Below, piece by piece: positions 12,889 through 57,915 of a stretch of 64,000 bases of DNA. The notes beneath the pieces are model-generated. The model did not search any database and was not told the origin of the DNA. It saw only the letters and a list, made by a program, of their open reading frames with translations. The stretch covers positions 29,314 to 93,313 of the forward strand of contig CBFHXB010000007.1 of assembly GCA_965659685.1 (NCBI GenBank). Direction: 5' to 3'. The stretch is from Candidatus Poseidoniaceae archaeon (GTDB lineage: Archaea > Thermoplasmatota > Poseidoniia > Poseidoniales > Poseidoniaceae). Made by a program: the position numbers and the translations under genes. Numbering within the stretch: position 1 is the stretch's first letter; every line of letters starts with the position of its first letter.

Positions 12889-13079
12889 AAGATTCTGCTC
12901 AGAACCTCGGCGAACGGCCGACCTCAATTGGGGGCATATAAACCCCAAAATGGTCAGGTGAAAACAGTTTCATTTTCACCTCGGTGGGCAGGCTTATCAG
13001 GGGGACTCGGACTCAGGCGAGTCATGCTGTGCGTGTTCCCCGCCAATCCTCGGGAACATGTTCTGGAGGGGTGCTTCCA
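12889..13079. promoter_or_regulatory. orc1/cdc6 upstream region with TATAAA flanked by GGGG/CCCC and an 8-bp perfect inverted repeat (GGTGAAAA-N8-TTTTCACC); candidate promoter/ORB-like element
   Basis: Directly read: gggg-catataaa-cccc at 12931-12946; ggtgaaaa (12957-12964) / ttttcacc (12973-12980). Locally AT-richer than the genome. Confidence 0.3.
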
Positions 13080-14321
13080 ATGACCGGGAACATCTTCGAC
13101 AAGGCCCTCGGCCGGGCCACCTTGTTCCGCAACAAGGAACACCTTCGTCACAGCCACCAGCCGACGCACCTTCCTCACCGAGACCGTGAGATTGAGCAAC
13201 TCACGTTCAACCTGGTCGAAGCCCTGAACGGGCAGATTCCTTCGAACATGATCCTCTACGGCGTGACCGGTGCTGGGAAGACCGCAGTCACCTCCTTTGT
13301 GTGCAACCAATTGGTGGAAAAAGGTCGCCAAATCGACCGCGATGTGTTCGCCATCACCGTCAACTGCCGGCAAATCGACACCCAATACCGTGTCTTGACA
13401 CATCTCGGGAACTCCATGCTTGAGGCCCACGAAGTGGACGAGATTCCGTTCACAGGATGGCCCACCGACCGTGTGCTCGGTGAGCTTGTTCGACGGATGG
13501 AAAAGCGAGCTGGTGTGTACATCATCGTGCTCGATGAAATCGATCACCTCGTCCGCAAGGCCGGCGATGACCTCCTGTACAACCTCACAAACCTGAACAG
13601 TTCGCTCAAAGCAGCCCGCTGCTGCGTCATTGGAATCTCCAACGACCTCAAGTTCACGGATTTCCTTGACCCCCGTGTTCGTTCGCGGCTTGGTCAGCAA
13701 GACGTGGTGTTCAATCCCTACGACGCAGACCAACTGCGCGACATCCTCGTGCAGCGCTCCTCAAGTGCGCTGCATCCCGATGCGTTGGAAGACGGTGTGA
13801 TCGGCCTGTGCGCTGCGCTGGCTGCGCAAGAGCACGGTGACGCCCGTTGTGCCTTGGACCTGCTCCGCGTCTCCGCAGAAAAGGCCGAGCATGAGGGCAT
13901 TCCGACGGTGGCCATTCGCCACGTCCGCACCGCACAATCCCAAATCGAAGCCGACCAAATCACGCCGGTGGTCGGCTCGTTGCCGACCCAACAGAAGCTG
14001 GTCCTGTCCGCTGTCCTGCTGACCGAGCGGACCGGAGCTCGTGGCGTCCAAACCGGCGAGGTGTACGACGTGTACGACCAAGCCTGCCACCACGTGGGGA
14101 AGGCTCCACTGACCGCTCGCCGGGTGTCGATGTTGATCTCCAACCTTGACATGCTGGGGCTCATCACCGCACGGACCGTCAGCCGTGGCCGCTACGGGCG
14201 CACCAAGGAGATTCACTCCAGTTTGCCACCCAACGTGGATGCAGCAGCCATCATTCAGGACTCAGAACCTGACCTCGAACCGATCTTCTCCTCAAAATAC
14301 AGGCACCAGAGCAGGCTATGA
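13080..14321 (+). CDS. orc1: Orc1/Cdc6 replication initiator (AAA+ plus winged helix)
   Basis: Walker A LYGVTGAGKT, Walker B IIVLDEID, sensor motifs and a C-terminal wH domain; typical ~413 aa archaeal Orc1/Cdc6. Confidence 0.9.
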   Translation: MTGNIFDKALGRATLFRNKEHLRHSHQPTHLPHRDREIEQLTFNLVEALNGQIPSNMILYGVTGAGKTAVTSFVCNQLVEKGRQIDRDVFAITVNCRQIDTQYRVLTHLGNSMLEAHEVDEIPFTGWPTDRVLGELVRRMEKRAGVYIIVLDEIDHLVRKAGDDLLYNLTNLNSSLKAARCCVIGISNDLKFTDFLDPRVRSRLGQQDVVFNPYDADQLRDILVQRSSSALHPDALEDGVIGLCAALAAQEHGDARCALDLLRVSAEKAEHEGIPTVAIRHVRTAQSQIEADQITPVVGSLPTQQKLVLSAVLLTERTGARGVQTGEVYDVYDQACHHVGKAPLTARRVSMLISNLDMLGLITARTVSRGRYGRTKEIHSSLPPNVDAAAIIQDSEPDLEPIFSSKYRHQSRL

Positions 14322-14375
14322 GTCCTGGGCTTGTGCTGCGACGTCGTTATAACAAGATGGCAGGTGGCGAGCGAC

Positions 14376-14924
14376 ATGACCGAGACGTCCAACGAAGGCC
14401 GGGGCCTCGTCCAGATGGTCGTTGACCCCTCGTCCGTCACCGCCCGCTGGTTCGTCGGCCTCGGCGTGTGGGGCTTGGTGCTCGCCCTGCTCAACCTGAT
14501 GGGCATGGCTCATCCCGGCTACCGAATCTCGTGGGCCGGTGTCCTGAGCATGGGTCGCCTCAACGAAGCCTTCGAAGCGCATGCGACCGCTCCTGCTTTC
14601 GTGGCCAGCGACCTTGTGTTCATTGCACTCTGCGGTGGCATGGTCGCCCTCGGCTTCCGCACCATTGCCAGCGAGGAAGGCAGCGTTGCCGGCTTCTTCC
14701 GCAGCCTTGTCGACAACTCCACCTGGCGTGCCCTCGGTTCCGCTGAAGGCGGCTTGGCCCACACCGTTGGGGCATGGTGCCTCCTCGTCGGCCTCCTCTT
14801 CTATGTCATCCGCGGCGCCATGCACACCAACTGGTTCGACCCCGGCGTCTACGCCGTCAGCGCCGTTTTGGTCGCCTTCGGGTTTGCGCTTCGTGCCCTC
14901 GCTTTGAGCGAAGACGAAGCCTGA
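14376..14924 (+). CDS. Hypothetical integral membrane protein (4-5 TM)
   Basis: Hydrophobic segments; no recognisable motifs. Confidence 0.4.
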   Translation: MTETSNEGRGLVQMVVDPSSVTARWFVGLGVWGLVLALLNLMGMAHPGYRISWAGVLSMGRLNEAFEAHATAPAFVASDLVFIALCGGMVALGFRTIASEEGSVAGFFRSLVDNSTWRALGSAEGGLAHTVGAWCLLVGLLFYVIRGAMHTNWFDPGVYAVSAVLVAFGFALRALALSEDEA

Positions 14925-14933
14925 TCAGGGCCT

Positions 14934-16070
14934 TCAGTGGCCGTTCCGGCCCGTGATCGCATCCCATGCGCCAAGCCAAAGTCCGGTCCAGAGGGCCCAT
15001 GACCACGCAAGGATGAGCATCCTGAGTGAGAAGGATGCAGAAGACAGCATCCAAGCGATGCGGTTTCGCTGGCGCACGTCGCTCATCACCTGTCGGTTGA
15101 CGGCACCAAGGGCGCTGATCCACATGATGAATTCCGCGAGGGTTAGCAGGCTTGCACCCACCAGCAAGGCGGTGGAGGACGTTGTTCCAAGCTCATTGGG
15201 AAGGGTCATGCCCCCTTGGCCGGAGATGATCTCGGGAAGGAGGGCTGCACCAAGGCCGATCATGAGGGCCAGCCATGCCCCCAACCGAAGGGGCAACATC
15301 GCAAGCACCAGCGTCGAGGTCCCGAGGAAATCGAACGCCATGCCTTTCCTTGCACGTCGTGGCCATCGGCGCACGATGCGCACGTGGGCCCGTGCGTCAC
15401 GTCGCCGCTTGGCGACAAAGCGCTTCCGCCCCTCTTCCGGAACGTGACGGACCATGGCATCTGGGGCGTAGACGATGGAGCCACCCGATGCCAGAAGGCG
15501 CAGGCTGACCTCCATGTCCTCCGCGTGGTACCACGCAGGATCAAATCCACCTGAATCTCGAAGCGCTTTGGCGTGGAACATGGAGCAAGGGCCGTTGGCA
15601 AGGGTGGTTCGGCGAGGTCGACTCCGGTACTTCCGTTCAATCTCGATGGAACGGAGCCTTGAGACAAGGTCGTCTCCTTCTTCGAAGACAGTGCGGCCGG
15701 TGATGGCAATTACCTTTTCGTTTTCAAGACCGGTTCGAGCGGCCATCAAGGCCTCAATCCAGTCTGGCATGGGTCGAACGTCAATGTCCGTGATGGCGAC
15801 CCAGTCGCCGTTTGCTGCTTCAGTCGCGGCATCCCTGGCCGCGGACAAGCCTTCAGCAGGGCGTTGGATGACGCGGACGGGCACCTCGCTTTCTGGGTCA
15901 TGGAAGGCTTGCAAGCGCTCCCCTGAGCCGTCGCTTGAGCCGTCGTCCACGGCGATGATTTCCAAAGGACGCCACGTCTGCTCCAACAGGGATTGCATGC
16001 ACCCGTCGACCCAATGCGCCCCATCGCGGACGCAAACCGTGACCGTGACGAGCGGTCTTTCTTCGCTCAT
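14934..16070 (-). CDS. Family 2 glycosyltransferase with C-terminal TM domain
   Basis: N-terminal GT-A fold (VTVCVRD…AVDDGSSDGS…, DxD-like ITDIDV) followed by 4 TM helices. Confidence 0.7.
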   Translation of the reverse strand: MSEERPLVTVTVCVRDGAHWVDGCMQSLLEQTWRPLEIIAVDDGSSDGSGERLQAFHDPESEVPVRVIQRPAEGLSAARDAATEAANGDWVAITDIDVRPMPDWIEALMAARTGLENEKVIAITGRTVFEEGDDLVSRLRSIEIERKYRSRPRRTTLANGPCSMFHAKALRDSGGFDPAWYHAEDMEVSLRLLASGGSIVYAPDAMVRHVPEEGRKRFVAKRRRDARAHVRIVRRWPRRARKGMAFDFLGTSTLVLAMLPLRLGAWLALMIGLGAALLPEIISGQGGMTLPNELGTTSSTALLVGASLLTLAEFIMWISALGAVNRQVMSDVRQRNRIAWMLSSASFSLRMLILAWSWALWTGLWLGAWDAITGRNGH

Positions 16071-17089
16071 CGTTGCACCTCAAAGGCATCCAAAATGGTC
16101 CTGCAACGCTCTTTCATCGCCAACGTGGTGCGTTGCACCATCAGGCCTTGACGGGGCATGCCGAAGATCACCATGGTGCCCAGAGGGGCAAGCAGGTGAA
16201 TGTACAACGGCGCCATGTCTTCCTCGCCGTCGACCACCATGACACATGGGGCGTCAGATTTCAGGGCCTGCTCAAGCGCAGTGAGAAGGTTCGGCGTCAG
16301 CACTCCTGCGGGAGAAGACGCGTCCACGCGGAAGGGGAACGCATCGACGTTCACCTCCTCCCCAACGTCAAGCGCAACGCGTTTGGTTTGACCGTCGATC
16401 AGCGCAAGATTAGGGAGGACGTCCATCTCAAGCATGACCCGTGCGGTCACGTCTCCCACGGCGATCAACGGACCGTCCTGCGACGTGAGGTCGTCCAACA
16501 TCGCCGCCATCGCCACTTCGGGAGCCTCTTCAGGACCAGGATAAAGCGTGCCGGAGGGCGTCTTCAGGTGGGCTTCAGCGGCAGGGCTCATGGCCATGAC
16601 GTGCTCGCGCCATGCCGAGCGAATCCACGCTTCTCCGTTGGTGTCCATGCTTCCGTTTCGGATGGCGGTCGAGGACAGGATGGTCCCTTCAGCGTTGAGG
16701 CGGTGGGCCACTTCGATGAGGGCCAAGGGTTCGAGTCCGTGTTCGATGCGCTTTCGGTTGATGGCCTCTCCACCGGTTCGCGTTTCTGGGCTGACGACCA
16801 AGGCATCCGCCGTCGGGTGGGAGGGGGCTGGGCCAAATGCGTCGCTGAGGAGGTGCAGGCTCCAACCGGCATCACGAACGTTTCGCAAGGCGGCTTCGAC
16901 CGCCGCCATCCTGTCTTCCATCGGCTGAATCCGGTGGTCTTTGGCGAGGGCCATGGCGTCGGTGGTGACGTGCACCTCAAGATGAGACGCGGCTTGAAGC
17001 CCTGCTTCCAGCAAATCTCGGTGGCCGTCATGAAGTCGGTCGAAGGTTCCCCCAAGGAGGCACCGGACATGCCCTCCTCTGGAGGTCAT
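16067..17089 (-). CDS. Fusion of archaeal phosphopantetheine adenylyltransferase (PPAT, COG1019-type) and DUF359 GTP-dependent dephospho-CoA kinase
   Basis: N-terminal half has the nucleotidyltransferase motif GGTFDRLHDGH and ISSTAIRNG. C-terminal half has the DUF359-like AVGDVT…LIDGQTKR…VVDGEEDMAPL. The 4-nt ATGA overlap with the downstream GT2 gene was read directly. Confidence 0.6.
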   Translation of the reverse strand: MTSRGGHVRCLLGGTFDRLHDGHRDLLEAGLQAASHLEVHVTTDAMALAKDHRIQPMEDRMAAVEAALRNVRDAGWSLHLLSDAFGPAPSHPTADALVVSPETRTGGEAINRKRIEHGLEPLALIEVAHRLNAEGTILSSTAIRNGSMDTNGEAWIRSAWREHVMAMSPAAEAHLKTPSGTLYPGPEEAPEVAMAAMLDDLTSQDGPLIAVGDVTARVMLEMDVLPNLALIDGQTKRVALDVGEEVNVDAFPFRVDASSPAGVLTPNLLTALEQALKSDAPCVMVVDGEEDMAPLYIHLLAPLGTMVIFGMPRQGLMVQRTTLAMKERCRTILDAFEVQR

Positions 17090-17430
17090 GGAGCAAGCGT
17101 CCCTGCTGAGCCCTTCATGGCATCGGCGATGGACGGTGAGAAAGAGGGGGTCTGTCCCCCCGCACGAACGGCCCGCTTCATCGCCTCACAGCTCTGGGGC
17201 CTGACCCATGTGCAGGGGTGGTCTGTGCGACCGGTTGGTTGGCTCGAGGTCATCCATACGTCACCCGAGGACCCATAGTCCGATCACAGATCCGCTGTTG
17301 CTCCACTGATCATCCCCGAGGGTCACAGCGGTCTTCGAAGCGGGCCACTGCCTTGGTATCGAACGTCATCGCCTGTTTGCACAGTGGCTCGGCCCGATGT
17401 TGCAGGTGTGGCAGGTGCCGGTTCGACGGT

Positions 17431-19824
17431 TCACCTATCAAGACGTCGCTGACTCAACAACCGTTGCAGAGGGCCTGTTTCTTGACCTAAACCGACGAAC
17501 GTCGGCCATGTGTGGGGTGGTTTCAGAAGCCAACAGGCCTCTGGATGGGTTCGCCCGACGGGCGTCGGGCGCCCTTCCTGTTCGGCGATGGCGGCCTCAA
17601 CCACGTCGAACAACGCAGCAGTGTGTGGATTTTCCTCGATGAGATGGACGTCGGAAAGGTCCCTGTTCTGAAAGGTCAACTTTGGTTCGGGCGGAGCAAT
17701 TCCCGGCGGCCCTCCTCCGTCCATCTCAGTGGCGACCATGGGCCACATCAGTTCACATTCTGCCAACCATCGACGTCCTCGGGCCGAAGCGAGCAGGTTC
17801 GGGAGCCATTCAGGCAACCATGGCGCCCACCAGCGCCATGGAAGGTTCTCGCAACGGTGGATGATCGTGTCCACGTTTGGGGGCACTTCAGGAGCGCTGA
17901 CCCACGCGTGCCATGTGGCCAAAGCCTCGTTGTGTGCATCCGTTGTGAACGGCAGCGACTGGACCCTCGTCCACAGTTTTGGCAGCAGGAAGGCAAAATG
18001 AAGCGGGTCTCCCATCCATGCGGCGACGTCGAGGTCGTCGGCCTCTTCGTCGCCGCGAAGGATGAGCAAGCGAGCGCTGCTGGCCACCGAGCGCGGTGGT
18101 GAATCCGTGTCACGAACGCGAAGCTGCGGCTGGTGTTCGTAACGCCGAGCCAGTTCAAGCGCGTAGGTCTCCCGCTCGTGATGTGTCGCCCGCCATGCCT
18201 CGTCACGAAGCCAAGCGTCAGCGGCCATCGTTGAGGCATGCAGACCAACCCATTCGTCGGGAATGCGTGGACCAATCCTTCGCCACCGTCGTCCTCGTTC
18301 TTCGGGGGAGGAAGCGATCCAAGCCGCCAGCGGGTGTTCGTGTTCCAGATCATCGGCAAGGTCGTCGTTGCCCTCGGGCCACGCGGCCAAGGCCCTTCGC
18401 AGTTCCCGCTCTGCCCGTGGGGCCTTCCGCTCCCCTTCTCGGGCCACATCATTCGACGTTGTGCCGGTCGTCAATTCCGCTGCCGAGCGAGGGAGGGCGA
18501 GGTTCCAGAGGGTGGCCTTGACGGGTTGTTGCCGGTCTTGTGCGAGGCGAAGCCGTGTTACTTCGTTGAGGTGAACCCATCGTTCGTCGTCGCTTTCCGT
18601 CAACCACGTCCCTTGCTTGTGTTCGCGCAAGCGTGCATCGCCGGCGACCAACAACTGACATCGCCCGTCGCCGATCACCCGCCTGAGGAGTTTGGCATGC
18701 TTTGCTCCGAGGGTCCATTCGCCTTGGACGGCGTCTGAAGCGTGTTCAAGGGCCCATTCCCAGATGGCTCGGGCGCCTTCGGCATTGGTTCGCGCCAGTT
18801 CGTGGAAGGACGTGTCATGCTTGACCCAAGTCGTCGGACCAAACGCAGCCAAGGCCGCATGCGCCACTTCGCTTGGGCGCCCTCGGCGGTTCCCCCGTAG
18901 CCGGTCGAGCACGCGCTGCGTGCGGCGGTTCAATTCGCCCTCGGTCAGGCGTGGGTGGCGGTGGCGCATCCACGTGCGGAGCAGTGATTCGGGTCGTTCG
19001 GCGATCGGGTTTGGACGCGAGGACCTGAGCACCGTCAGTCCTCGTTGCTCCAAGAGGAGGACCTCACGTCTCCACGCCTCACCGACCTGCCCAAGGATCG
19101 GGGTTGACGGCCGGCATGGGACTTCTGTGCCTCGGATGTTGCCGAGGTTGATGGTGCTTCGATCCAAGGCAGCAGGCGGTGTTTCGTTGGGCGCTTCTGC
19201 TTCGAACCAGGTGCCAGGTGGCATCGTCCAGCGGTCCTGCCCGCTCATCACACGAGCTCGCACCAAGGCCAATTTGCGACCGCCTTGGGTCCACGACCGG
19301 ATGTCGCCCAAGGACGCTTCAGCGGGTGGAGGGTCACAGGGTTCGAGGGTGTCCAAATCAAACCATTGAGGAGGGCTCCTCACCGCACACCAGGCTCCCC
19401 CCCGGTTGTTTCCACTGGAGGAAAGAAGGGGTGCACCTTCCACCCCTAACCTCCTCGGTGGGAGCCAGAGGAGGTCGGAAGGTACGGTTTCCCCGTAAGC
19501 AAGCACCACCAATGGCCCATCCCTGGTCAGCAGAACGTTCGTGCCCTCCGTTCTCGGTTCCTTGGTCGCTTCCCTGAGGCGTTGGAGTGCGTCCTCTTGG
19601 AGGCGAAGAAGGCCTTGAGGGCTCAAGTGATGGGGTGCGCCACGCACCCCTTCGCGCTCATCCCGAGTCACCAAACCTTGCAAACGGAGGGTGCGCAGGG
19701 TGGACGACGTGTGCGAGGTGGCCAAACTCAGCCGTTCTGCGAGAGCGGACACCGTGGCGGGCCCGTCGAGCAGTTCGTCGAGGATCCGGCGTTGGTAGCC
19801 GCTGCGGATTCTCGACGTGGCCAT
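17431..19824 (-). CDS. Large (797 aa) Arg/Trp-rich protein with N-terminal winged-helix HTH (ArsR/MarR-like); function unknown
   Basis: N-terminus YQRRILDELLDGPATVSALAERLSLATSHTSSTLRTLRLQGLVTR is a wHTH; the rest has no recognisable catalytic motifs. Confidence 0.55.
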   Translation of the reverse strand: MATSRIRSGYQRRILDELLDGPATVSALAERLSLATSHTSSTLRTLRLQGLVTRDEREGVRGAPHHLSPQGLLRLQEDALQRLREATKEPRTEGTNVLLTRDGPLVVLAYGETVPSDLLWLPPRRLGVEGAPLLSSSGNNRGGAWCAVRSPPQWFDLDTLEPCDPPPAEASLGDIRSWTQGGRKLALVRARVMSGQDRWTMPPGTWFEAEAPNETPPAALDRSTINLGNIRGTEVPCRPSTPILGQVGEAWRREVLLLEQRGLTVLRSSRPNPIAERPESLLRTWMRHRHPRLTEGELNRRTQRVLDRLRGNRRGRPSEVAHAALAAFGPTTWVKHDTSFHELARTNAEGARAIWEWALEHASDAVQGEWTLGAKHAKLLRRVIGDGRCQLLVAGDARLREHKQGTWLTESDDERWVHLNEVTRLRLAQDRQQPVKATLWNLALPRSAAELTTGTTSNDVAREGERKAPRAERELRRALAAWPEGNDDLADDLEHEHPLAAWIASSPEERGRRWRRIGPRIPDEWVGLHASTMAADAWLRDEAWRATHHERETYALELARRYEHQPQLRVRDTDSPPRSVASSARLLILRGDEEADDLDVAAWMGDPLHFAFLLPKLWTRVQSLPFTTDAHNEALATWHAWVSAPEVPPNVDTIIHRCENLPWRWWAPWLPEWLPNLLASARGRRWLAECELMWPMVATEMDGGGPPGIAPPEPKLTFQNRDLSDVHLIEENPHTAALFDVVEAAIAEQEGRPTPVGRTHPEACWLLKPPHTWPTFVGLGQETGPLQRLLSQRRLDR

Positions 19825-30899: not shown

Positions 30900-33800
30900 A
30901 TGAACGCGAATGCCCCCCGCCGCTTGCCAGCTTTCCTGATGATGGCGATGCTCCTCCTTGTCCCACTTGCCTCGTCCATCAACGTGACCACCTTCAGCGG
31001 TGGTGATGCGGAAGCCGTGGTCGACGTTCGCGATTCAGCGACTTGGATGAACGGCGATTCTTCCATGTCCCTTCCGGCGGGGGAGACCGTCACCTCCGCT
31101 TCCATGACCGTTGGCACGGCCATGGCGGAGCACGACGCCTTTGTGAGGATTGACACGGACACCCTCCCCAAAACGTGGAGCCCGGATGCAAACGGTCAGT
31201 TGACCGCCTTCTCCGCAAAATCGTCCTTCCAGTTTGAGGAAGGCTCCTCAGCGACTCCGGTCCGTTTGACGTCCAACGGTTTCCTCAGCGATTTTGAGGG
31301 CACAACCAAGAATTTCACCGACGGCACCCAGCCGATGTTGAGCCCAATGGCCTGGGGTCACAGCACCATCCCTCCCTCCATTGGGGTCCTTCCGAACGGC
31401 TGCAAATCTGGTGAGATGTGCTGGGGCACCAACCCCTCCGACGACGATTACCGCGACGACAACAACGGCAACGATTTCGAGAGCATGCTGCTCTCGCCGC
31501 CCATCTTCATCGACCCCGCGTTGGGAGGCACCACGTTCACCTTCTCCTCCTTCCACGCTCTGAACTACCTTGAAGCCGGCACCGGTGGTGTGCAGAAGTA
31601 CTACCGCGATTGTGCCTACATCGAGATTCGCGAGCGCAACGACGAGTTCTTCCCACCCGACGACGGTGGTCCTAACGCCTTCAGTTACATCGGCGTTGAT
31701 CAAGCCAACTCTTCCAACATCGGCTTCGGCAACGGGCTCTACACCAAGGGCACCAGTCAGGGACAAATCCAGAACGGTTGCCAAGGTGTTGCAAGCACGG
31801 ATTCTGCACTCGGTGGAACCTCGGTGAGCGCCAACAACCCGAGCGGTTGGGCCGAGGTCGCTGTCGACCTCTCTAATTACGTGGGTCAGTGGGTGCAACT
31901 CCGCTTTGTGATGGAGCACAACACCATCGGCGGCAACGGAAACCCGCCCGCCAACTACACCATGCCGGGCTGGTACATCGACAACGTGCGTTTGGGCCAA
32001 CTCCTTCCAGCGAACGGCTGGATGAAGGTTCGAGGGTTCCTTCCCTCCGTGAACGGTGGCGATCCACAACCGAACGGGTATGGATTGCTCAACATCGAGG
32101 CGGAAACCACGGACACCGGTACCCTCACCGTCGACGTCTACAACACCCAGACCGGCGCCCTTGTGAACGACCTTGATGGGAATCCGATGTCGGGGTTGAC
32201 CGGGGACATCATCGAATTGTGGAACATTGACGCCAACGTCCACAAATCCCTGGATTTCATGTTCAATTACGACTCAGGGCCAGACCGGTTGTCCACGGCC
32301 GTGCTCCACGGTTTCAACATCGGAACCAGAATTGGAACAGGTTTCAACCAAACCGACCTTTCCAACCCAGAGATCTACGACGGGGCATGGAACGCGATGG
32401 GAGGCCCGTACATCTACACTCCAACTCTGGTCGACACGGGATACAGTCCTGCCATCGAGCGGCTCAATTTCGATTATCCCATCACGGCGGTCAAGCCGAC
32501 CGCAAACCGCAACTGCGCAGAGGAGCCAAACATCGATTTGTCCACCCCCGAAGTCGAAACGACAGAGGCCTTGGTGGTGGACCAATGGAACGAACTCAGC
32601 CAACCGATGTTCGGATTTGAGGCCATGGTCTCCTTTGATTTCGATCCGGCGAACAATTTCTTTGATTGCCGGGTCTCTGAATTCTGGTTCGACCTCCGCT
32701 TTGGTCATCACGCCGAGAACGTGCGTGTGGACATCGCCAACGACGGTGACATCGATTGGGGTTTCGACCAACCCGCCTTTGGAGCGCTCGGACGCCAGAC
32801 GGTGTTCTACAACGCCAAGGTCGGTGACGTGCACACCTCGGTGGACAGCCAAACGATGACCCTCAACCTCGCCGCTCAGGCGGTGGGCGGTGGCTTTGTG
32901 CTGCCCTACGGTGCGACCGTTACTGCCGCTGACATCGTGTTTGACCAGAACACCATCTATTCGACCACCAACGTCGGTGAGGGCTTCGACCTCTCTCTTG
33001 CGGTCGGTGGCTTGACCGAGGATTTGGGAGCGATGCCAAACGCAAGTCGCCTCATGCTGGAAATCGGCAACACGCCGCTCGGCCTTGCCGATGCCATCAA
33101 CAACCTGCTTTCCAACCCGCAAGTGCCCTATGCGTTCGAAGACGACTACGGCAACCAATGGGTGTCCTTCCGGTTCGAACTTGAGAGCCTGAACGCCTCG
33201 ACGGGCAGTTCGCTCGTGGTTCGTGACCTCGACATCGTGTACGATTGGGAGCGCACGTTCGATGAAACCGATGGTTTAGACCGCGAGTTGAACCAAGGCG
33301 TTGCGCTGGCCGGTGGTGCCGGAAGCGTTGACGTTCCCTTTGTGGTCTACACTTCGAACGGTGGCGCCGTGCGCTTCGCTGACCTGAACGTGAACACTGC
33401 AGGCGGCTACGACAGCACCATGACCTTCACGAATGCACCCGTCGGCCTCTACCCCTCTGGGGAGATCTACGAGGTGACCAGCACCCACGCCGTGGGTGGC
33501 TCGACTGGCACCACGCTTGCCGAGGCCGTGCTCCTGTTCGAATCCGCCAGCGGATCTGTGGAAGTGGCGTGGTCGGAGGTCACAGGCTTCGAGAAGCGTG
33601 CTGACCCCGGCAACTACCTCACGCTGGAAACCTCCACCGTGGTGGACACCACCAGCCCGGTGGGGAAGGACATCACGTGGCGCTTCCGCGTCAACCCTGC
33701 ATGGGAAGACGCAGAGACCCTCCGCGTCTACGCCTTCAGCGTCGGTGCAAATGGCGTCGACGGTCTCCCCGCAGCGGTGCTGTTTGACCCGAGTTTGGGC

Positions 33801-36737
33801 AATGCGATTGAGAACGATGCGGGCATCCAGAGCCTCCATATCCTCAATGCCAACGACGAGATCCAAGACCTTGATGACGCGATTTCCACCCGTTACATGA
33901 CCATCGACATGAGCGTTCGTCTCCAAGACCTTGACGTCGCTCCTGACCCCTCGACCTACAACCTGGTCCTCGAGCAGCAGACCGTGGACAACGTGGGCGG
34001 CAACATCACCCTCGGATGGACGGAAATCGACAACATCAGCGGCCCGATCGGCGGCGACGTCGAATGGCCGGTTGACCTTGGCATCGGCGCTGCCGGTGAC
34101 GAGATCCTCCGCGTCCGTATGGTCGGCTACGAAGGTGGAGACACCCTCTGCCCGCCGACCGACCTTCGTCCGGACGAGGATTGTGCGGTGCCGTTCAACC
34201 TCTCCATCGACACGTACGAACCCAACCTCCTGTCCATGTCGGTCTTCCTCGGCGGCGCCGACCTGCCAGAAAATTGGCGTCGCGTCTACGACGACACGTG
34301 GGTGATTCCTTCGGCGACCCAACAAATGCGCATCATCGCACAGGACCTGCCTTCGCCCCCTGAAACCATGACCATGCACCTTTGGGTGGAGTATGAGCAC
34401 GACACCGACGGAGACGGCGAAGCCGATCCTCAGGAGTACACCATGGTGACGCTGAACAGCGATGGGGGCGCACCAAACGCCTCCTACATGGCTCAATACA
34501 ACGACGAAGCCAACCTTGGCCGTGACCCAGTGGGCAAGGTCAGCGTTTGGATCGAAGGCTTCGACTTGGCCGGGAACTCCATCGACGGTGGTTCGGCCGG
34601 ATTCGAAAACGACTACGTGACCTACGTCTCGATGAGTTCTTCCACCCCGGTGATCAACAACGTCTACATCGAAGACGCGGCAGGTCTGCGCTTCCTCCGT
34701 TCGACGGATCCAGGCTTCGAGGGCCTGCAGAACAAGACCGTGTACGCAGGCAACACCTACCACGTCATCGTCGAGATGCAAGACGGCAACGGATGGCGCG
34801 ACCTCGACAGCATCCGCGTGAACCTTGACGGCGCTTCGTCCGAAGACATGGTGGTGTCCTACTACCCACGCAACGGTACGGCATGGACCACCTCGCCCTA
34901 CCTGACGATCGTCGACGACGATGAACTCGCACCCGTGCTTCGACGCATGGACGGTGGCGCCCTCATCGACCCGTTCGAGAACACCTTCTACCTCGACTTG
35001 CCCGTCCGATTGGCGTGGGGCATTCCCGGCCACGTCGGTGCGAGCACCCCAAAGGTCAGCGTTCAGGACTTCGACAACGTGATTCAGAACTACCTCGGTC
35101 TCTCTGGACATCTTCAGGATTGGATGTACGCCGACGGTGTGCGTCTTGATTTCCGCGCTGACCTCAACGCAGGCATCATGGAAATCCCCTACCTCTCCGA
35201 CCAGACCGCACCGGTGACCGGCGATGTGCAGGTGGGCTTCATCGGGCCTGGCGATACCGTTCGATTCGAAGGCCGCTACGCCTACGTGGCGGGACTGGCG
35301 AACGGCGTCTCCATTCAGCCTGAGATTCCGTTGACCATGGAGATCACCCGCCAAGACGCGGCCAAGGTGAGCGAACCCGGCAAGGATTACATCCCCTTCG
35401 CAGGTGAAGTTTGGACGGAGACCTTCACAGGTGGAATGTTCGACTTCAACATCACCGCACCACCGGTCACGAACGAGTTCGTCTACACCTTCCGCCTCAT
35501 CGACATGCCCACCGGAGCAACCGACGCCACGGACGCCTACTGTGGGGATTTCGATGGATACGGTTGCGCAGAGTTCACCCTGAAGGTGGACTTCAATGCA
35601 CCCAAGGTCGCCACCAACAGCTGGGAATTGACCAAGGGCGGCACGGAAGACGCCCTTGGCGAGGAGTTGCCTTCCTCCGTGCTCCACTGCGTTGATGCTG
35701 TGGTGACCATTGAGGAGCCTGAGAAACTCTTGCAGAATGAAGTTGAGATCCGCTGGCAGTTCTTTTCCGACCCGAGCACCGGGCTGACGTGGCCGGTCTA
35801 CGGTCAGGCCTTTGGAGCCGGACCCTTGTCCACCGACGTGAACTTGGTGAAGGGTGTCGGCGAATACTACGCCTCCGTGGATTGCATCGATCTGTGGCCC
35901 GACCCCGTCGAGCCTTCCGCCTCACAGATGGCCGGCGTCCGCGTCATCTTCTGGGTCTACGGCACCGATTCCGCAGGGTCCTCCATCCTTGGTGGCGGAC
36001 CGACGTCCGAAGGGAACGTGGTCCCGATCAACGGTGGCGACGACGAATCGACGTCGCAGTACAACCTGATCAACGAAGAAGCAGTGTTCACTGTCGGAAC
36101 CGTGCGGTTCAGTCCTGCCCAGCCTGAGGTCGGTCAGCAGATGAACCTCGAAGTGTACCTCCAAAACACCGGCAGCTTGGCCGGTACGGTCGACCTTCGC
36201 GTGATGGGCGTCTACGACGGCATTGCGTCCCGTGAGACCGTGCAGACGTCGCAAGAACTTGCCATCGGCGCCACGGCATGGGAATCGATCACCCTCGAGG
36301 CCTACTTGACGCCCACCACCGGCCTCTACTACCTCATTTACGACGACGTCTCCGGCGACCTGCTCTACAACGGCAGCGAAACGGCGGGTGGACTCCTCAA
36401 CGTCAAGGTCCAGAGCGACGACGGTCAAGGCGGTGCCATGGCCCTCTTGCTTGTTGGCTTGGTCGGCGTGGTCGCGGTGCTCGCGACCCTCGTGATGGTG
36501 CTGCTCCGCCGTGGAGGCGGTTCTGACCTGGCTGACGACGAGGACGACTACGACGACTACGAGGATGAAAAGGAAGTCGTGAACATTCCGTCCAGCGCAC
36601 CCGCTGCGGACGTCAGCCCGCAGATGGCGGAGGCGATGAAGACCTTCCCACAATGGAACCAAGAGCAGATTCAGGGCTACTTTGACCAAGGGTGGGACAT
36701 TGAATCCCTCCTGGAATGGGTCAACAGTCAGGAGTGA
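30900..36737 (+). CDS. Giant (1945 aa) secreted cell-surface protein with N-terminal signal peptide, many NxS/T sequons, C-terminal TM anchor and acidic cytoplasmic tail
   Basis: Signal MNANAPRRLPAFLMMAMLLLVPLASS. C-terminal LLLVGLVGVVAVLATLVMVLLRRGGG then DDEDDYDDYEDE tail. Beta-rich repetitive middle typical of S-layer/adhesin-like proteins. Confidence 0.75.
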   Translation: MNANAPRRLPAFLMMAMLLLVPLASSINVTTFSGGDAEAVVDVRDSATWMNGDSSMSLPAGETVTSASMTVGTAMAEHDAFVRIDTDTLPKTWSPDANGQLTAFSAKSSFQFEEGSSATPVRLTSNGFLSDFEGTTKNFTDGTQPMLSPMAWGHSTIPPSIGVLPNGCKSGEMCWGTNPSDDDYRDDNNGNDFESMLLSPPIFIDPALGGTTFTFSSFHALNYLEAGTGGVQKYYRDCAYIEIRERNDEFFPPDDGGPNAFSYIGVDQANSSNIGFGNGLYTKGTSQGQIQNGCQGVASTDSALGGTSVSANNPSGWAEVAVDLSNYVGQWVQLRFVMEHNTIGGNGNPPANYTMPGWYIDNVRLGQLLPANGWMKVRGFLPSVNGGDPQPNGYGLLNIEAETTDTGTLTVDVYNTQTGALVNDLDGNPMSGLTGDIIELWNIDANVHKSLDFMFNYDSGPDRLSTAVLHGFNIGTRIGTGFNQTDLSNPEIYDGAWNAMGGPYIYTPTLVDTGYSPAIERLNFDYPITAVKPTANRNCAEEPNIDLSTPEVETTEALVVDQWNELSQPMFGFEAMVSFDFDPANNFFDCRVSEFWFDLRFGHHAENVRVDIANDGDIDWGFDQPAFGALGRQTVFYNAKVGDVHTSVDSQTMTLNLAAQAVGGGFVLPYGATVTAADIVFDQNTIYSTTNVGEGFDLSLAVGGLTEDLGAMPNASRLMLEIGNTPLGLADAINNLLSNPQVPYAFEDDYGNQWVSFRFELESLNASTGSSLVVRDLDIVYDWERTFDETDGLDRELNQGVALAGGAGSVDVPFVVYTSNGGAVRFADLNVNTAGGYDSTMTFTNAPVGLYPSGEIYEVTSTHAVGGSTGTTLAEAVLLFESASGSVEVAWSEVTGFEKRADPGNYLTLETSTVVDTTSPVGKDITWRFRVNPAWEDAETLRVYAFSVGANGVDGLPAAVLFDPSLGNAIENDAGIQSLHILNANDEIQDLDDAISTRYMTIDMSVRLQDLDVAPDPSTYNLVLEQQTVDNVGGNITLGWTEIDNISGPIGGDVEWPVDLGIGAAGDEILRVRMVGYEGGDTLCPPTDLRPDEDCAVPFNLSIDTYEPNLLSMSVFLGGADLPENWRRVYDDTWVIPSATQQMRIIAQDLPSPPETMTMHLWVEYEHDTDGDGEADPQEYTMVTLNSDGGAPNASYMAQYNDEANLGRDPVGKVSVWIEGFDLAGNSIDGGSAGFENDYVTYVSMSSSTPVINNVYIEDAAGLRFLRSTDPGFEGLQNKTVYAGNTYHVIVEMQDGNGWRDLDSIRVNLDGASSEDMVVSYYPRNGTAWTTSPYLTIVDDDELAPVLRRMDGGALIDPFENTFYLDLPVRLAWGIPGHVGASTPKVSVQDFDNVIQNYLGLSGHLQDWMYADGVRLDFRADLNAGIMEIPYLSDQTAPVTGDVQVGFIGPGDTVRFEGRYAYVAGLANGVSIQPEIPLTMEITRQDAAKVSEPGKDYIPFAGEVWTETFTGGMFDFNITAPPVTNEFVYTFRLIDMPTGATDATDAYCGDFDGYGCAEFTLKVDFNAPKVATNSWELTKGGTEDALGEELPSSVLHCVDAVVTIEEPEKLLQNEVEIRWQFFSDPSTGLTWPVYGQAFGAGPLSTDVNLVKGVGEYYASVDCIDLWPDPVEPSASQMAGVRVIFWVYGTDSAGSSILGGGPTSEGNVVPINGGDDESTSQYNLINEEAVFTVGTVRFSPAQPEVGQQMNLEVYLQNTGSLAGTVDLRVMGVYDGIASRETVQTSQELAIGATAWESITLEAYLTPTTGLYYLIYDDVSGDLLYNGSETAGGLLNVKVQSDDGQGGAMALLLVGLVGVVAVLATLVMVLLRRGGGSDLADDEDDYDDYEDEKEVVNIPSSAPAADVSPQMAEAMKTFPQWNQEQIQGYFDQGWDIESLLEWVNSQE

Positions 36738-40106: not shown

Positions 40107-40207
40107 CGGAAACTTCTGTTCGGGTCACAGCCCCACATTTTCGACCTCTGTTGAGGGGGAATGGTCAAAGGCCGGTGTGCCTGGCTACACCGATGGAGGG
40201 TGTGCGT

Positions 40208-40999
40208 ATGCTGGACCTCAAAGGAAAGACGGCCTTCGTGTTTGGAGTGGCGAGCGAAGATTCCATCGCTTGGGCCATCTGCCAACAACTCGCTGCGGCA
40301 GGCTGCACGCTCTACCTTGGCTACCAGAAGCGGTTCATGAGCCGGATTTTCAAGCTCAAGGACCAGTTGCCCTCCATTGGAGGATTCTACCCCCTGGACG
40401 TGGCAGAAGACGCGACCACCAAGGAATTCTTTGATGCGTTTTCCGCGGAACATCCCGGCAAGAAAGCGGACATCCTTGTCCACGCCATTGGCTTTGCACC
40501 TCGCACCTGTTTCGATCGCCCCATCCTCTTCGTCGAAGACGCCGACATCAACACCGCGATGACCATTTCTGCCAACAGCCTCCAGCGCTGCTTGAAGCAC
40601 GCCCTGCCCTACCTCTCCGAGGGCTCCTCGACCATCACGCTGACCTATGCGGCCTCCACCCGGCACGTCCCCTCTTACGGCATCATGAGCATGGCCAAGG
40701 CCGCGCTGGAGTGCTGGACGCGGGAACTCGCCTGCCACCTTGGCCCCGAGGGTCATCGCGTAAACGCCATCTCCTCGGGCCCCATCCGGACCATCGCGGC
40801 GTCGGGCATCCCCGGTTTTGACAACATCCTGGATCACGTGGCGTCAAATGCGCCACTGCGGCGCAACGTCACGCAATCCGACGTGGCGGGAACGACCCTT
40901 TGGTTGGCCAGCCCGCTGTCCGCTGGAGTGACGGGGCAGGTCATCCACGTGGATGCCGGCTATTCGATCACCATGGTTCCAGGAACCATCATGGAGTGA
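40208..40999 (+). CDS. fabI: Enoyl-[acyl-carrier-protein] reductase (NADH), FabI-type SDR
   Basis: FabI hallmarks: GVASEDSIAWAI N-terminus, Y…K active-site region (SYGIMSMAKAALE), SGPIRT motif. The stop lies 9 nt before the megasynthase ATG. Confidence 0.8.
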   Translation: MLDLKGKTAFVFGVASEDSIAWAICQQLAAAGCTLYLGYQKRFMSRIFKLKDQLPSIGGFYPLDVAEDATTKEFFDAFSAEHPGKKADILVHAIGFAPRTCFDRPILFVEDADINTAMTISANSLQRCLKHALPYLSEGSSTITLTYAASTRHVPSYGIMSMAKAALECWTRELACHLGPEGHRVNAISSGPIRTIAASGIPGFDNILDHVASNAPLRRNVTQSDVAGTTLWLASPLSAGVTGQVIHVDAGYSITMVPGTIME

Positions 41000-41008
41000 G
41001 GTGGGAAC

Positions 41009-44000
41009 ATGACGATCACCACAGCAGACGGCAAAGAAGTCGGAGGAACCGACCAAGGTCCCTTCGAACCGATCGCAATCATCGGATGCTCGGCGTTGAT
41101 GCCCGATGCTGAAGACACGGCATCGTTCTGGCAGAACATCATCGATGCCCACGTGAGCATCCGCGACCTCCCTGAGGGCCGATGGCCCGGTCCAGTGGAG
41201 CAGTTTTGGGCCGAGGGCGCACCGGGACAAGTCGTAGAGAACAGGACCTACGCCAAGATTGGCGCCTTTGTCGAAGGCTTCGAATTCAACTGGCGCCGCT
41301 GGCGGCAACCTCCCGGGACGCTCCCACAAATCGATCCGTGTCAACTCTGGGCGGTCGAAGTTGCGGCTTCGGCGTTGGAGCACGCAGGCTACGGGGACGA
41401 CGGTCGGCCATTGGACCGCAGCCGCGTGGGTGTGGTCTTTGCGAACGCGCTCGGCGGTGAAAATCGAAACGAATCCAATCAACGGGTGTGGGCCGAGCGC
41501 AACCGCGCCTTGGCCATTGAGGCCGGTTTGCCTGAAGCGTCCAGCGATGCGTTTGTTGCGGCCATGGTGGAGGGTGCTCCCAAAATCACAGAAGACACGA
41601 TGCCGGGAGAACTGGCCAACGTCGTGTCTGGCCGGGTGGCCAATCTGCTTGATTTGCAGGGTCCAAACCACGCGATGGACGCGGCATGTGCCTCTTCCCT
41701 TGCGGCCTTGCTCGATGCATGTCGGCTGCTTCACGCACGCCAAGTGGACGCCATGATTTGCGGTGCATCCGACCGCACCATGGACCCGGCGACCTACGCC
41801 AAGTTCAGCGCCATTGGTGCGCTGTCGCCCAGCCATTCCACGCCGTTCGACGCCCGTGCAAACGGCTTCGTGATGGGCGAAGGTGCTGGCGCGATGGTCC
41901 TGAAACGCCTCAGCGACGCGGTGCGGGACGAGGACGAAATATTCGCCGTCATCCGCGGGATTGGCGGCTCATCGGACGGCCGTGGAAAAGGCATCACCGC
42001 TCCTTCGCAGCGTGGTCAGATTCAGGCCATCGCACGCGCCTACAATCAGGCGGGATATGCGGCTTCGTCCGTCGAGTTGGTCGAAGCTCACGGGACCTCG
42101 ACGAAGGTCGGTGACGCCACAGAATTATCCACGTTGGGCACCTTGTGGACGGGACTTGGCGCCGGGGACCACGTTGCCGTGGGTTCCATCAAGAGCCAAA
42201 TCGGCCACCTGAAGGCGGCCGCAGGCATGGCGGGCTTGCTCAAGGTCACCATGGCCTTGCACCATGCCACCATCCCTCCGAGTGCAGGATTTGAAACGCC
42301 CAATCCTACGGTGGATTGGTCGACGAATCCCTTCTTCGTTCCAACCGAACCAATGGCGTGGCCCAAGCCAGACGGCCACCCACGCCGTGCCGGTGTGAGT
42401 GCCTTCGGCTTCGGGGGAACCAACTTCCACGTTGCCCTCGAAGCCTTCGATCCTGAACTCCACACCAGCATGGGCGCCACCTGGGCGTCGCGTTGGGACG
42501 CATTCACCGGCACGCCCTCCGCTCCCTCGGCAGCCTCCATCCTCGATGCATCGGCGACCCCTTCCCTCGATCATGCCGCCCTGAAGGCGATCGAAGGCGG
42601 TCTCCTGCTGCTGTCGGGCGACAGCGTCGAAGCCGTGTCGGGCCGACTTGCAGGTTTGTCCGTCTCTGGGCCAACCTTCGACGACGATGCTCGCGGCCAC
42701 CGTCTTTCCGCCGTGTTTGCGGATTGGTCGGCCTCCTTTGACCCCAAGGCTTCGGTTCGACTCGCTGTCGTGGCCACGTCGTGGGCCGAATTTGACAAGC
42801 GGAAGGGGTTGGCTGCCTCGTCGCTCGCTGACCCATCGCGTTGGGGCTTCTTGGCCGCTCAAGGCATCATGATCACAGACCAGCCGCCCATGCCGGCTCA
42901 AGCCAAAGTGGCCCACATGTACCCCGGCCAAGGCAGCCAATACGTCGGCATGACGCAAGACCTGTGGCAACGCTTCTCTGCGGTGCAGGACGTGTGGCGA
43001 CTCGCAGACGAGACCATGGTGGAAGTCCTCGACGGCGAAACGCTGTCCTCCTTCGTGTTGCGCAGCAACCTCAGCAAAGAGGAGATGAAAGACGCTGAGG
43101 AGAAACTGAAGCGCACCGAGTACACTCAGCCGGCGATGTTGACGGCCGATTTGGCCATCGAACGTGCGCTCAACGACCACGGCCTCAAGCCGGACATGGT
43201 TGCTGGACATTCCCTCGGTGAATATGCGGCCCTGATGTCGGCGGGCATCATGGACATGGACAGCGCCCTCCGTGCTGCTGCTGCACGTGGCACTGAGATG
43301 GGCTCCGTCGAGATCGACGATCAAGGCCTGATGGCCTCGGTCAGTGCCCCACTTGCGGACGTGGAGCGCATTCTGGAGGGGACCGACGGGTACGTCATTG
43401 CGGCCAACAAGAACTCGCCCAAGATGACGGTCATCGCCGGAGAAACGGCACCCGTCAAGGCCGCAATGGCCGCTTTTGAAGCCGAAAGCATGCCTTGCAC
43501 CGTCCTGCAAACCTCCCACGCCTTCCACTCCAAGATCGTCGCTCCGGCCAACGCGCCGCTGCGCGCCTTCCTCGAGGGATTGGACCTGCAATGGCCCTCG
43601 ATTCCGATCACGGCCAACGTTGACGGGACCTTCTACGCGATGGAGGGCGAGGACGCAAAGACGGCCGTCTTGGAGAAGCTCGCCGGGCAAATGGCCTCCG
43701 CTGTGGAGTGGACCGCCCAGATCGAAACGATGGCCGCCGCAGGTGCGGGAGCCTTCGTCGAAGTCGGGCCGAAGCGGGCGTTGACCGTGTTCGCGTCGCA
43801 GATCCTCGAAGACCGACCGCATCTTGCCGTGATGACCAACCACCCGAAGCAAGGTGGCATCGCCAGTTTCCTCTCCGCACTTGGGATGCTCGCGCTCGCA
43901 GGGCGCGTCCCCTCGCTCCCAAACGGTTCCAGCGACGTGTTGACCGAGGCCTTCCGCGCGGGTCCGACCGAAGCCTGGGCGTCGGCTTCGGCTCAACCGG

Positions 44001-49798: not shown

Positions 49799-50580
49799 TG
49801 CCGATGGAACGTGTCGTGCCGGAGTGGTCCGGCCTCGGGGTGCCGGTTCACCTCGTCCACCTTGCTCCGCTTCCGGCAACCCTTCCCGGACAGGACGATG
49901 GGTTGCCAGCCTTGGTGGATCCCGAGGAGTGGTCCACGTTCAAGACCGATAAACGACGTGTGGAGCATCTGGGGGGGCGTCTTCTTTTGGCGGCCTCGAT
50001 GGACGCTTGGTGGCGCATGCACCGCTTCCTTGGACGCGTGGATGAACTGGACGTGGTCCGGGATGCACATCGCGCTCCATACTTGCGTTGGCGCTCAGGC
50101 GTGTGGAGGCAGGCGCCGCTTCCTGGTCTCTCCATCGGTCACAGTGAAGGGCGTGCTGTGGTCGGTTTGGTGGCACCCGGTTGGAGCATCGGCGTCGACG
50201 CTGAACCCGCCGACCGCCGCATCGCCGAGGGCGCATGGGACATGTTTGCCTCTGCGGAGGAACGGGCCTCCTTTGACGGGAACCCGAAGGCTGCATTGCG
50301 GGCTTGGGTGACCAAGGAGGCCGTTCAGAAGGCCTTGGGCTTGGGCATGCACCTGAATCCTCGGCACATCGTTCCGGACGGCAACCGTTTCGTTCACGAC
50401 GGGGCCACGGTGGACCTCAGTTGGTTGGAGTCAGACGGGATGCTTGTTTGCGTGGCCTTGGCTCCGGGTCGTGCACCGCCGTCAACGCCAGAGGACGCCG
50501 TCCTGGAAGCGACGAAGGCGGCGATGGACGAGGACCCAGCGTGGGGCGTGGGGTGCAAAACCACACGGAACTTGTGTTGA
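49798..50580 (+). CDS. 4'-phosphopantetheinyl transferase (Sfp/EntD type)
   Basis: GVDAE…WVTKEAVQKALG motifs. ATG 49798-49800 overlaps the megasynthase TGA (TGATG), indicating translational coupling. Confidence 0.75.
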   Translation: MPMERVVPEWSGLGVPVHLVHLAPLPATLPGQDDGLPALVDPEEWSTFKTDKRRVEHLGGRLLLAASMDAWWRMHRFLGRVDELDVVRDAHRAPYLRWRSGVWRQAPLPGLSIGHSEGRAVVGLVAPGWSIGVDAEPADRRIAEGAWDMFASAEERASFDGNPKAALRAWVTKEAVQKALGLGMHLNPRHIVPDGNRFVHDGATVDLSWLESDGMLVCVALAPGRAPPSTPEDAVLEATKAAMDEDPAWGVGCKTTRNLC

Positions 50581-52107: not shown

Positions 52108-52179
52108 GCGGATATGGTGAAGTGGTTATCATCTGAGGTTTCCAACCTTATGTCGTGGGTTCGACTCCCGCTATCCGCA
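52108..52179 (+). tRNA. tRNA-Gly (anticodon TCC)
   Basis: Manually folded cloverleaf. Acceptor stem GCGGATA/TATCCGC, anticodon stem TGAGG/CCTTA with loop TTTCCAA (TCC), T-arm GGGTTCGACTCCC, discriminator A. No encoded CCA. Confidence 0.85.
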
Positions 52180-52193
52180 CTCAGCCTTGCAGT

Positions 52194-57799: not shown

Positions 57800-57915
57800 G
57801 GCGTTTGGTTGTGCTGAACCCTCATCAAGCATTGGTTGAATCTGAAGGGTTGAACACGAGCGTTGAAAGGCCATTCCCAGAACGGAAGCCCATGCGTGGC
57901 CGGGGCGGTGGGGAC

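Follow-up and report, generated by a model that had tools for sequence, protein, structure and literature searches.

Among cultivated archaea, Thermococcus included, the last two steps of CoA biosynthesis are assigned to two polypeptides encoded at unlinked loci, a pantetheine-phosphate adenylyltransferase (PPAT) and a dephospho-CoA kinase (DPCK) of the DUF359/arCOG04076 family. The statement of the preliminary description that these are separate genes in characterised archaea holds for the cultivated, characterised species. Fusions of PPAT with arCOG04076 have been published for uncultured group II/III Euryarchaeota, and the DPCK function of DUF359 was first predicted, and subsequently proved, starting from these fusions (PMC6650551; PMC6393860); the fusion AIF21550.1 is cited by Shimosaka et al. 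(2019, mBio 10:e01146-19; PMC6650551). Mutagenesis of the Thermococcus kinase TK1697 identified D48, D67 and D125 as Asp residues that matter: growth of the complemented strain was strongly impaired by D48A, and mutant phenotypes are also on record for D67A and D125A (PMC6650551).

The gene analysed here lies in a 64-kb stretch of DNA from a Candidatus Poseidoniaceae archaeon, which was analysed as a whole and is called the window below. Its product shows no substantive difference from the published group II/III fusions and is another ortholog of them. These fusions likewise carry PPAT at the N-terminus and DUF359 at the C-terminus, belong to Marine Group II/Poseidoniales and have the same predicted function. 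The fusion is therefore an already known architecture in a known lineage, published in 2019 as the clue to the archaeal DPCK, and the novelty implied by the preliminary description did not withstand comparison with the literature (PMC6650551, PMC6393860). In contrast to the two polypeptides of the cultivated archaea, the two enzymes are here covalently linked, with a connector of some 15 residues between them. The N-terminal half aligns to and superposes on the A. fulgidus protein 3do8, which represents the archaeal PPATs together with TK2128 and P. abyssi PPAT, and the C-terminal half does the same with TK1697 (8jvc).

Two further fused proteins have to be compared. Eukaryotic COASY also combines the PPAT and DPCK reactions with PPAT first, and its PPAT is of the archaeal/eukaryotic-type class. 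However, the kinase of COASY is a P-loop enzyme of the CoaE type, whereas the DUF359/arCOG04076 kinase has an unrelated fold, a thiamine-pyrophosphokinase-like derived Rossmann fold. The Pfam and NCBIfam matches of the fusion protein include no kinase family of the CoaE or P-loop type. Because the kinase folds are unrelated, COASY and the archaeal fusion are analogous and of independent origin; the window protein would act as a CoA synthase without belonging to the COASY family. The second case, the bifunctional pantetheine-phosphate adenylyltransferase/NTP phosphatase of some archaea (NF002250/PRK01170), also joins an archaeal PPAT to a second domain. Only the N-terminal 145 residues match this model, with 77 bits and far below its cut-off of 489, and its C-terminal partner is an NTP phosphatase instead of DUF359.

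Domain composition of the fusion protein

The gene is one uninterrupted open reading frame of 340 codons on the minus strand of the window (16067..17089), starting with the ATG at 17089 and ending with the TGA at 16069-16067; all features given below are located on this strand. No internal stop was found. The choice of the ATG is backed by 56 homologues of equal length with a common N-terminus and the complete coding sequence by over 100 homologues that are likewise fused and full-length, at about 339 aa; the GC3 of 0.71 is in line with the adjoining genes. As the preliminary description had proposed, this is a real single gene of a Marine Group II archaeon in which the last two enzymes of CoA synthesis are joined; profiles, motifs, Asp residues, predicted fold and the conserved fused architecture all agree with it.

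The N-terminal half belongs to the archaeal/eukaryotic-type PPATs (residues 10-154; 16628..17062). The NCBIfam PPAT subfamily model NF001985 matches residues 10-154 over profile positions 7-152 of 157 with 131.4 bits, above the curated cut-off of 104, and the Pfam family CTP_transf_like (PF01467) matches residues 11-144 with 37.1 bits (cut-off 21). The motif GGTFDRLHDGH, from which the domain had been recognised, corresponds to residues 13-23 and includes the HxGH nucleotide-binding motif H20-D-G-H23 (17021..17032), of which H20, G22 and H23 are invariant in the 56 aligned homologues. The SSTxxR motif S139-S-T-A-I-R144 (16658..16675), with S139, S140 and R144 invariant in the same set, aligns to ISSTRIK of 3do8. 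The sequence match to residues 3-145 of 3do8 (E=6e-13) keeps both HxGH and ISSTxxR, and using Foldseek the modelled PPAT half was matched to the same structure with E=4e-9, a TM score of 0.82-0.86 relative to the target and an rmsd of 1.7-2.0 A, as fits a nucleotidyltransferase Rossmann fold.

The C-terminal half belongs to the GTP-dependent DPCK family DUF359/arCOG04076 (residues 170-340; 16070..16582). Pfam DUF359 (PF04019) covers residues 216-337 with 88.5 bits against a gathering cut-off of 25, extending over profile positions 2-126 of 126. The DUF359 motifs named in the preliminary description are present, VGDVT at residues 211-215, DGQTKR at 232-237 and (V)DGEED at 287-291. Residues 174-340 align with residues 14-174 of TK1697 (PDB 8jvc; E=3e-17) at about 30-35% identity. 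In this alignment Asp213 (VGDV; 16451..16453) corresponds to TK1697 Asp48, Asp232 (IDGQTKR; 16394..16396) to Asp67 and Asp291 (GEED; 16217..16219) to Asp125, and all three are invariant in the 56 homologues. Foldseek matched the modelled DPCK half to 8jvc/8jvg with E about 1e-14 and TM scores of 0.83-0.85 relative to the target. The E-values of the Pfam and NCBIfam matches to both halves range from 1e-9 to 1e-38, far beyond chance.

Two Thermococcales-specific equivalog models scored below their cut-offs, NF041124 with 62.8 bits (cut-off 290) and the DPCK model NF041125 with 74.6 bits (cut-off 300); the latter was built on Thermococcales orthologs only, so that the miss excludes a 'Thermococcales equivalog' and not membership of the family. 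Such scores are expected for a distant lineage. They mean, however, that the precise function is an extrapolation over about 30% identity.

The PPAT match ends at about residue 154 and the region alignable to TK1697 begins at about residue 170-174. The connector between them (residues 155-169; 16583..16627) contains the invariant residues W155 and M167. In the AlphaFold model of the 340-aa protein (pLDDT 92.9, pTM 0.88), which fits onto the solved DPCK (8jvc) as well as the archaeal PPAT-type structure 3do8, the connector has a pLDDT of 86-95.

Considering domains, residues and fold, the protein, which comes from an archaeon of Marine Group IIa (Poseidoniaceae), is very probably a 'CoA synthase' with two activities. 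The N-terminal PPAT (about residues 10-154) would convert 4'-phosphopantetheine and ATP to dephospho-CoA, and the C-terminal kinase (about 170-340) would phosphorylate the 3'-OH of dephospho-CoA to yield CoA. By analogy to Thermococcus TK1697 the phosphate donor is probably GTP. The short conserved connector would hold both domains in a fixed arrangement, and dephospho-CoA might be channelled from one to the other.

Gene neighbourhood and the assignment to CoA biosynthesis

The fusion gene and a downstream family-2 glycosyltransferase (GT2) gene (14934..16070) share the tetranucleotide ATGA (16067..16070), in which the stop of the former overlaps the start of the latter, and this 4-nt overlap implies co-transcription. 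The tight junction also occurs in L006 and L014-L016. The overlap is part of a conserved block consisting of an HTH protein, the fusion, GT2 and Orc1/Cdc6, which is kept down to 48% identity. The upstream intergenic region, an Rfam scan and a tRNA scan showed nothing relevant to the fusion gene.

The conserved linkage to GT2 would also suit a different pathway, in which the nucleotidyltransferase adenylylates or cytidylylates another phospho-substrate and DUF359 phosphorylates the product, feeding the co-transcribed glycosyltransferase for a cell-envelope glycan. The superfamily includes glycerol-3-phosphate cytidylyltransferases, to which weak matches were found (TIGR01518, E=1.5e-4; 1coz, E=0.008), and the equivalog scores below cut-off leave room for another substrate. 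Nevertheless, we consider this pathway very improbable. The PPAT model exceeds its cut-off, whereas all nucleotidyltransferase models of NCBIfam other than the PPAT subfamily reach 34 bits or less. Furthermore, arCOG04076 is a pan-archaeal core family for which DPCK is the only demonstrated role (PMC6650551, PMC6393860), and every archaeon needs such an enzyme. In Patescibacteria the fusion occurs without a GT2 neighbour, and one of these bacterial proteins carries an NMNAT-like domain, in keeping with cofactor biosynthesis.

The preliminary description had also regarded the fusion as relevant to a polyketide synthase (PKS) system, and this functional link was rejected. The megasynthase cluster of the window (40151-50580) is located about 24 kb from the fusion and includes an enoyl reductase and a PPTase of its own. 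The syntenic block around the fusion contains neither CoA nor PKS genes and is conserved independently of the megasynthase, and the fusion is also found in Patescibacteria. A literature search on MGII and polyketide synthase retrieved no archaeal PfaA-like gene.

Conservation of the fusion in Poseidoniales

A survey of relatives, as had been suggested for the fusion, yielded more than 100 fused homologues with lengths of 337-403 aa and identities from 95% to 44%, named Poseidoniaceae, Poseidonia or Poseidoniales. Every full-length Poseidoniales homologue among the matches listed is fused. Homologues with 77-84% identity carry the names Candidatus Poseidoniaceae or Poseidoniales archaeon, and their contigs share the synteny; Thalassarchaeaceae supply more fused clusters at 35-40% identity. 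Three short proteins with about 39% identity to the C-terminal half (P0154, P0207 and P0236) were considered as stand-alone DPCKs of close relatives and discarded. They are probably fragments, because the P0207 cluster includes a fused member of 342 aa, whereas P0154 and P0236 are singletons from contigs of 1-4 kb. A search by tblastn for stand-alone copies revealed no second copy of either domain; the window was the whole scope of this search.

In the alignment of the 56 fused homologues (43-95% identity) every catalytic or binding motif known for either half is invariant, a pattern that argues for purifying selection acting on catalysis in the two domains alike. This makes it very unlikely that one half is degenerate and retained for regulation or scaffolding while its step is done by the product of a separate gene, such as a P-loop CoaE-like kinase. 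Most archaea indeed have P-loop DPCK homologues as well (arCOG01045), but the arCOG01045 proteins of T. kodakarensis were without DPCK activity (PMC6650551).

An artefact of assembly or annotation, in which a frameshifting sequencing error or the loss of a stop codon had merged adjacent PPAT and DUF359 genes in the contig, was ruled out. The uninterrupted architecture of about 339 aa recurs in over 100 independent clusters, which stem from many different samples and assemblers, and in six GTDB species genomes; W155, M167, K176 and P178 in and after the connector are invariant across the fused homologues, and the connector is modelled at high confidence.

Fusions in Patescibacteria and implications

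The PPAT-DUF359 fusion is also abundant in Patescibacteria (Ca. Gottesmanbacteria, Ca. Chisholmbacteria and others). These proteins of 317-356 aa have the same domain order and keep HxGH, SSTxxR, VGD, the aspartate of IDxxxxR and DGEED. They differ from the window protein by their bacterial hosts and by an identity of only about 28-30%, and some possess an extra N-terminal NMNAT-like domain (L007). In the literature searched we found neither the bacterial occurrence of the fusion nor a biochemical study of a fused enzyme.

The DPCK half of the window protein scored 63-77 bits with stand-alone archaeal DPCKs and 43-65 bits with the fused ones of Patescibacteria. The bacterial kinase halves are thus no closer to the Poseidoniales domain than the stand-alone enzymes are. 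These per-domain bit scores lend no support to a specific sister relationship of the Poseidoniales and Patescibacteria fusions, and a single origin of both groups of fusions is unsupported by this comparison, which included few stand-alone sequences.

Taken together, the fusion is a housekeeping gene of cofactor biosynthesis and matters little for the window. It is a tentative view, and as a whole a rather doubtful one, that Poseidoniales have no PPAT or DPCK other than the fused and rigidly packed enzyme, that this enzyme is a CoA synthase with true channelling and a donor specificity possibly altered compared to TK1697, and that the architecture, which dominates in Patescibacteria, is found there through exchange or convergence. 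For the annotation of these archaea the gene has a practical consequence. The PGAP/JGI labels of these proteins read only 'pantetheine-phosphate adenylyltransferase', 'cytidyltransferase-like' or 'DUF359 domain-containing', and because public annotation is incomplete in this way, the last step of CoA synthesis can erroneously be scored as missing when the metabolism of Poseidoniales is reconstructed. The abundance of the fusion in Patescibacteria is a more interesting lead than the window gene itself: if true, it would mean either that a terminal CoA pathway of archaeal type has passed between archaea and CPR bacteria or that the fusion is convergent.

Reading frame, domains and predicted activities

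The gene had been described as a single fusion of phosphopantetheine adenylyltransferase (PPAT) and a DUF359 dephospho-CoA kinase (DPCK), and its reading frame confirmed that it is a single gene. Positions 16067-17089 (minus strand) contain one ORF of 340 codons, from the ATG at 17089 to the TGA at 16069-16067, and no internal stop was found across these codons. All motifs cited in the preliminary description were located in the protein: GGTFDRLHDGH at residues 13-23, VGDVT at 211-215, DGQTKR at 232-237 and DGEED at 287-291. Since the GC content of the gene (0.618) equals that of the window and its GC3 (0.71) is the same as that of the adjoining genes, the gene is native to the contig.

In the proposed Pfam check both halves exceeded the gathering score: residues 11-144 matched CTP_transf_like with 37.1 bits (versus 21), and residues 216-337 matched DUF359 with 88.5 bits (versus 25). 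The NCBIfam model NF001985 for the PPAT subfamily matched residues 10-154 with 131.4 bits (cut-off 104), and the models for NMNAT, glycerol-3-P cytidylyltransferase, RibF and HldE reached at most 34 bits. The Thermococcales equivalog models for DPCK (74.6 bits) and PPAT (62.8 bits) identified the correct halves far under their lineage-specific cut-offs, as expected because the protein originates from a distant order. Comparison with PDB sequences matched residues 174-340 to TK1697, the GTP-dependent DPCK from Thermococcus kodakarensis (8jvc, E=3e-17), and residues 10-152 to the Archaeoglobus PPAT-type protein 3do8 (E=6e-13). For the AlphaFold2 model, computed from an alignment of 56 homologues, mean pLDDT was 92.9 and no segment had low confidence; the pTM of 0.88 suggests a defined arrangement of the two modeled domains. 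Using Foldseek against the PDB, the TK1697 structures 8jvc/8jvg were the top matches (E ~1e-14, TM 0.83-0.85 relative to the target), followed by archaeal 3do8 (TM 0.82-0.86, rmsd 1.7-2.0 Å) and then by bacterial CoaD structures.

Taken together, domain identities, motifs, fold and conservation support the reading as PPAT plus DUF359 DPCK. The protein is very probably a bifunctional enzyme, which would convert 4'-phosphopantetheine to dephospho-CoA and dephospho-CoA to CoA, with GTP as the putative kinase donor and possibly with substrate channelling. Eukaryotic CoA synthase likewise combines PPAT and DPCK, but its kinase is a P-loop CoaE domain; the fusion protein with its DUF359 kinase therefore stands outside that family. 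The architecture proved not to be novel: the PPAT-arCOG04076 fusion was the reason why TK1697 was tested and then shown to be the archaeal DPCK (Shimosaka et al. 2019, PMC6650551), and the gene is a correct rediscovery of an arrangement published for the same lineage.

A role outside CoA synthesis could be tied to the probably co-transcribed family-2 glycosyltransferase (GT2; 14934-16070, minus strand), the ATG of which overlaps the TGA of the fusion gene as ATGA. This alternative is weak, as the PPAT-specific model scored above its cut-off and the fusion adjoins transketolase and transaldolase, without GT2, at one Patescibacteria locus. That one half of the bifunctional enzyme is catalytically dead is argued against by the alignment of 56 fused homologues (43-95% identity). 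The exchanges D48A and D67A in TK1697 strongly impaired growth of the complemented knock-out, and D125A had a milder effect (PMC6650551). Alignment by phmmer and by MAFFT matched the three mutated TK1697 positions with D213, D232 and D291, which are invariant in the 56 homologues together with the flanking G212, V214, T235-K236-R237 and G288-E289-E290 and with H20, G22, H23, S139, S140 and R144 of the PPAT half. Judged from these invariant residues, each half is apparently catalytically competent and subject to purifying selection.

Occurrence and gene neighborhood in Poseidoniales

A large protein database yielded 484 matches to the fusion protein. Among the best 120, 118 are proteins of 337-403 aa; the two shorter ones (260 and 217 aa), which cover part of the query, are probably products of cut genes. 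Both Pfam domains are precomputed in 115 of these 120, identity ranges from 95% to 44%, and the source names, where given, are Candidatus Poseidoniaceae, Poseidonia or Poseidoniales. The suggested survey of related genomes detected the fusion in six Poseidoniales GTDB species genomes (77-84% identity), and clustering at 50% revealed more fused clusters in Thalassarchaeaceae (MGIIb) and unclassified marine Euryarchaeota (35-40% identity). These affiliations place the source of the window among the MGIIa (Poseidoniaceae) archaea. An assembly artefact is rejected, because the uninterrupted fusion recurs among the database homologues, the six species genomes and the 56 aligned proteins; the fusion is the rule in this lineage.

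Upstream of the fusion gene, after a gap of 341 nt, lies the gene of a 797-aa protein (17431-19824, minus strand) whose sole Pfam match is a weak one to an N-terminal winged helix (MarR/ArsR-type wHTH). GT2 is followed by a 197-aa ORF (14331-14924, plus strand) without Pfam hits, hydrophobic-looking by eye, and by an Orc1/Cdc6 gene (12984-14321, plus strand), which suggests a nearby replication origin. The block 12984-19824 is also present in contig L006 (77% identity) and, as 821-aa protein, fusion, GT2, 187-aa ORF and Cdc6, in the three contigs L014-L016 encoding the homologue P0059 (48% identity). It is thus conserved across Poseidoniaceae down to 48% fusion-protein identity, and no further CoA-pathway gene was found within it.

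The preliminary description had connected the fusion with a PKS system. Such a system exists at 40151-50580 (plus strand), a compact Marine Group II cluster consisting of a FabI-like enoyl-ACP reductase (40151-40999), a 2929-aa KS-AT-ACPx3-KR-DH megasynthase of PfaA-like (PUFA-synthase-like) architecture (41009-49798) and, overlapping it by 4 nt, an Sfp/ACPS-type phosphopantetheinyl transferase (49795-50580). A literature search for MGII and polyketide synthase found no description of this cluster. A special relevance of the fusion to the PKS is, however, unsupported, because the cluster is 24 kb away and outside the conserved block, CoA is required by any cell, and the fusion occurs regardless of the cluster.

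Elsewhere in the window, two giant ORFs probably encode large secreted or surface proteins. The one of 1945 aa (30900-36737, plus strand) matched no Pfam family at E<=1e-3, and the other, of 1885 aa (52217-57874, minus strand), matched a subtilase S8 domain alone, at residues 289-640. The tRNA-Gly(TCC) at 52108-52180 (plus strand) is the only RNA gene detected by Rfam and ARAGORN in the 64 kb.

Public annotation names of orthologs cover one half only ('pantetheine-phosphate adenylyltransferase', 'cytidyltransferase-like protein', 'DUF359 domain-containing protein'); some JGI labels already read 'phosphopantetheine adenylyltransferase/uncharacterized protein (UPF0218 family)'. NCBIfam contains no PPAT/DPCK fusion model, and automated Poseidoniales pathway reconstructions may therefore report the DPCK step as missing.

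Fused homologues in Patescibacteria

The PPAT-DUF359 fusion is also abundant in Patescibacteria/CPR bacteria. PSI-BLAST in the 2019 study had recovered archaeal members of arCOG04076 only (PMC6650551), and our literature search found no paper linking Patescibacteria with PPAT/DPCK enzymes. A 335-aa homologue is encoded on a 1.22-Mb contig of a Ca. Gottesmanbacteria MAG (L008:4977-5984, plus strand), the fusion is also present at the Patescibacteria/CPR locus L017 (6001-6972, plus strand), and Ca. Chisholmbacteria has a fused cluster on a 1.16-Mb contig. With the L008 protein as seed, 871 matches were obtained at E<=1e-10; 119 of the best 120 are two-domain proteins of 314-365 aa, the remaining one is a 271-aa product with DUF359 as sole domain on record, and the few organism names among them are Patescibacteria or Gottesmanbacteria. 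Among the 150 best representatives at 50% identity, 105 have a better score with the bacterial fusions than with the protein of the window, and per-domain bit scores gave no evidence for a specific kinship of bacterial and Poseidoniales fusions.

A 520-aa protein of a Patescibacteria MAG (L007:4464-6026, plus strand) has three domains: an archaeal-type NMNAT-like domain at residues 6-158 (NF002243, 116 bits, just below the cut-off of 127), PPAT at 176-332 and DUF359 DPCK at 347-519. These bacterial fusions outside the window are the most interesting lead of the analysis, and the three-domain protein would unite terminal steps of NAD and CoA biosynthesis in one polypeptide.
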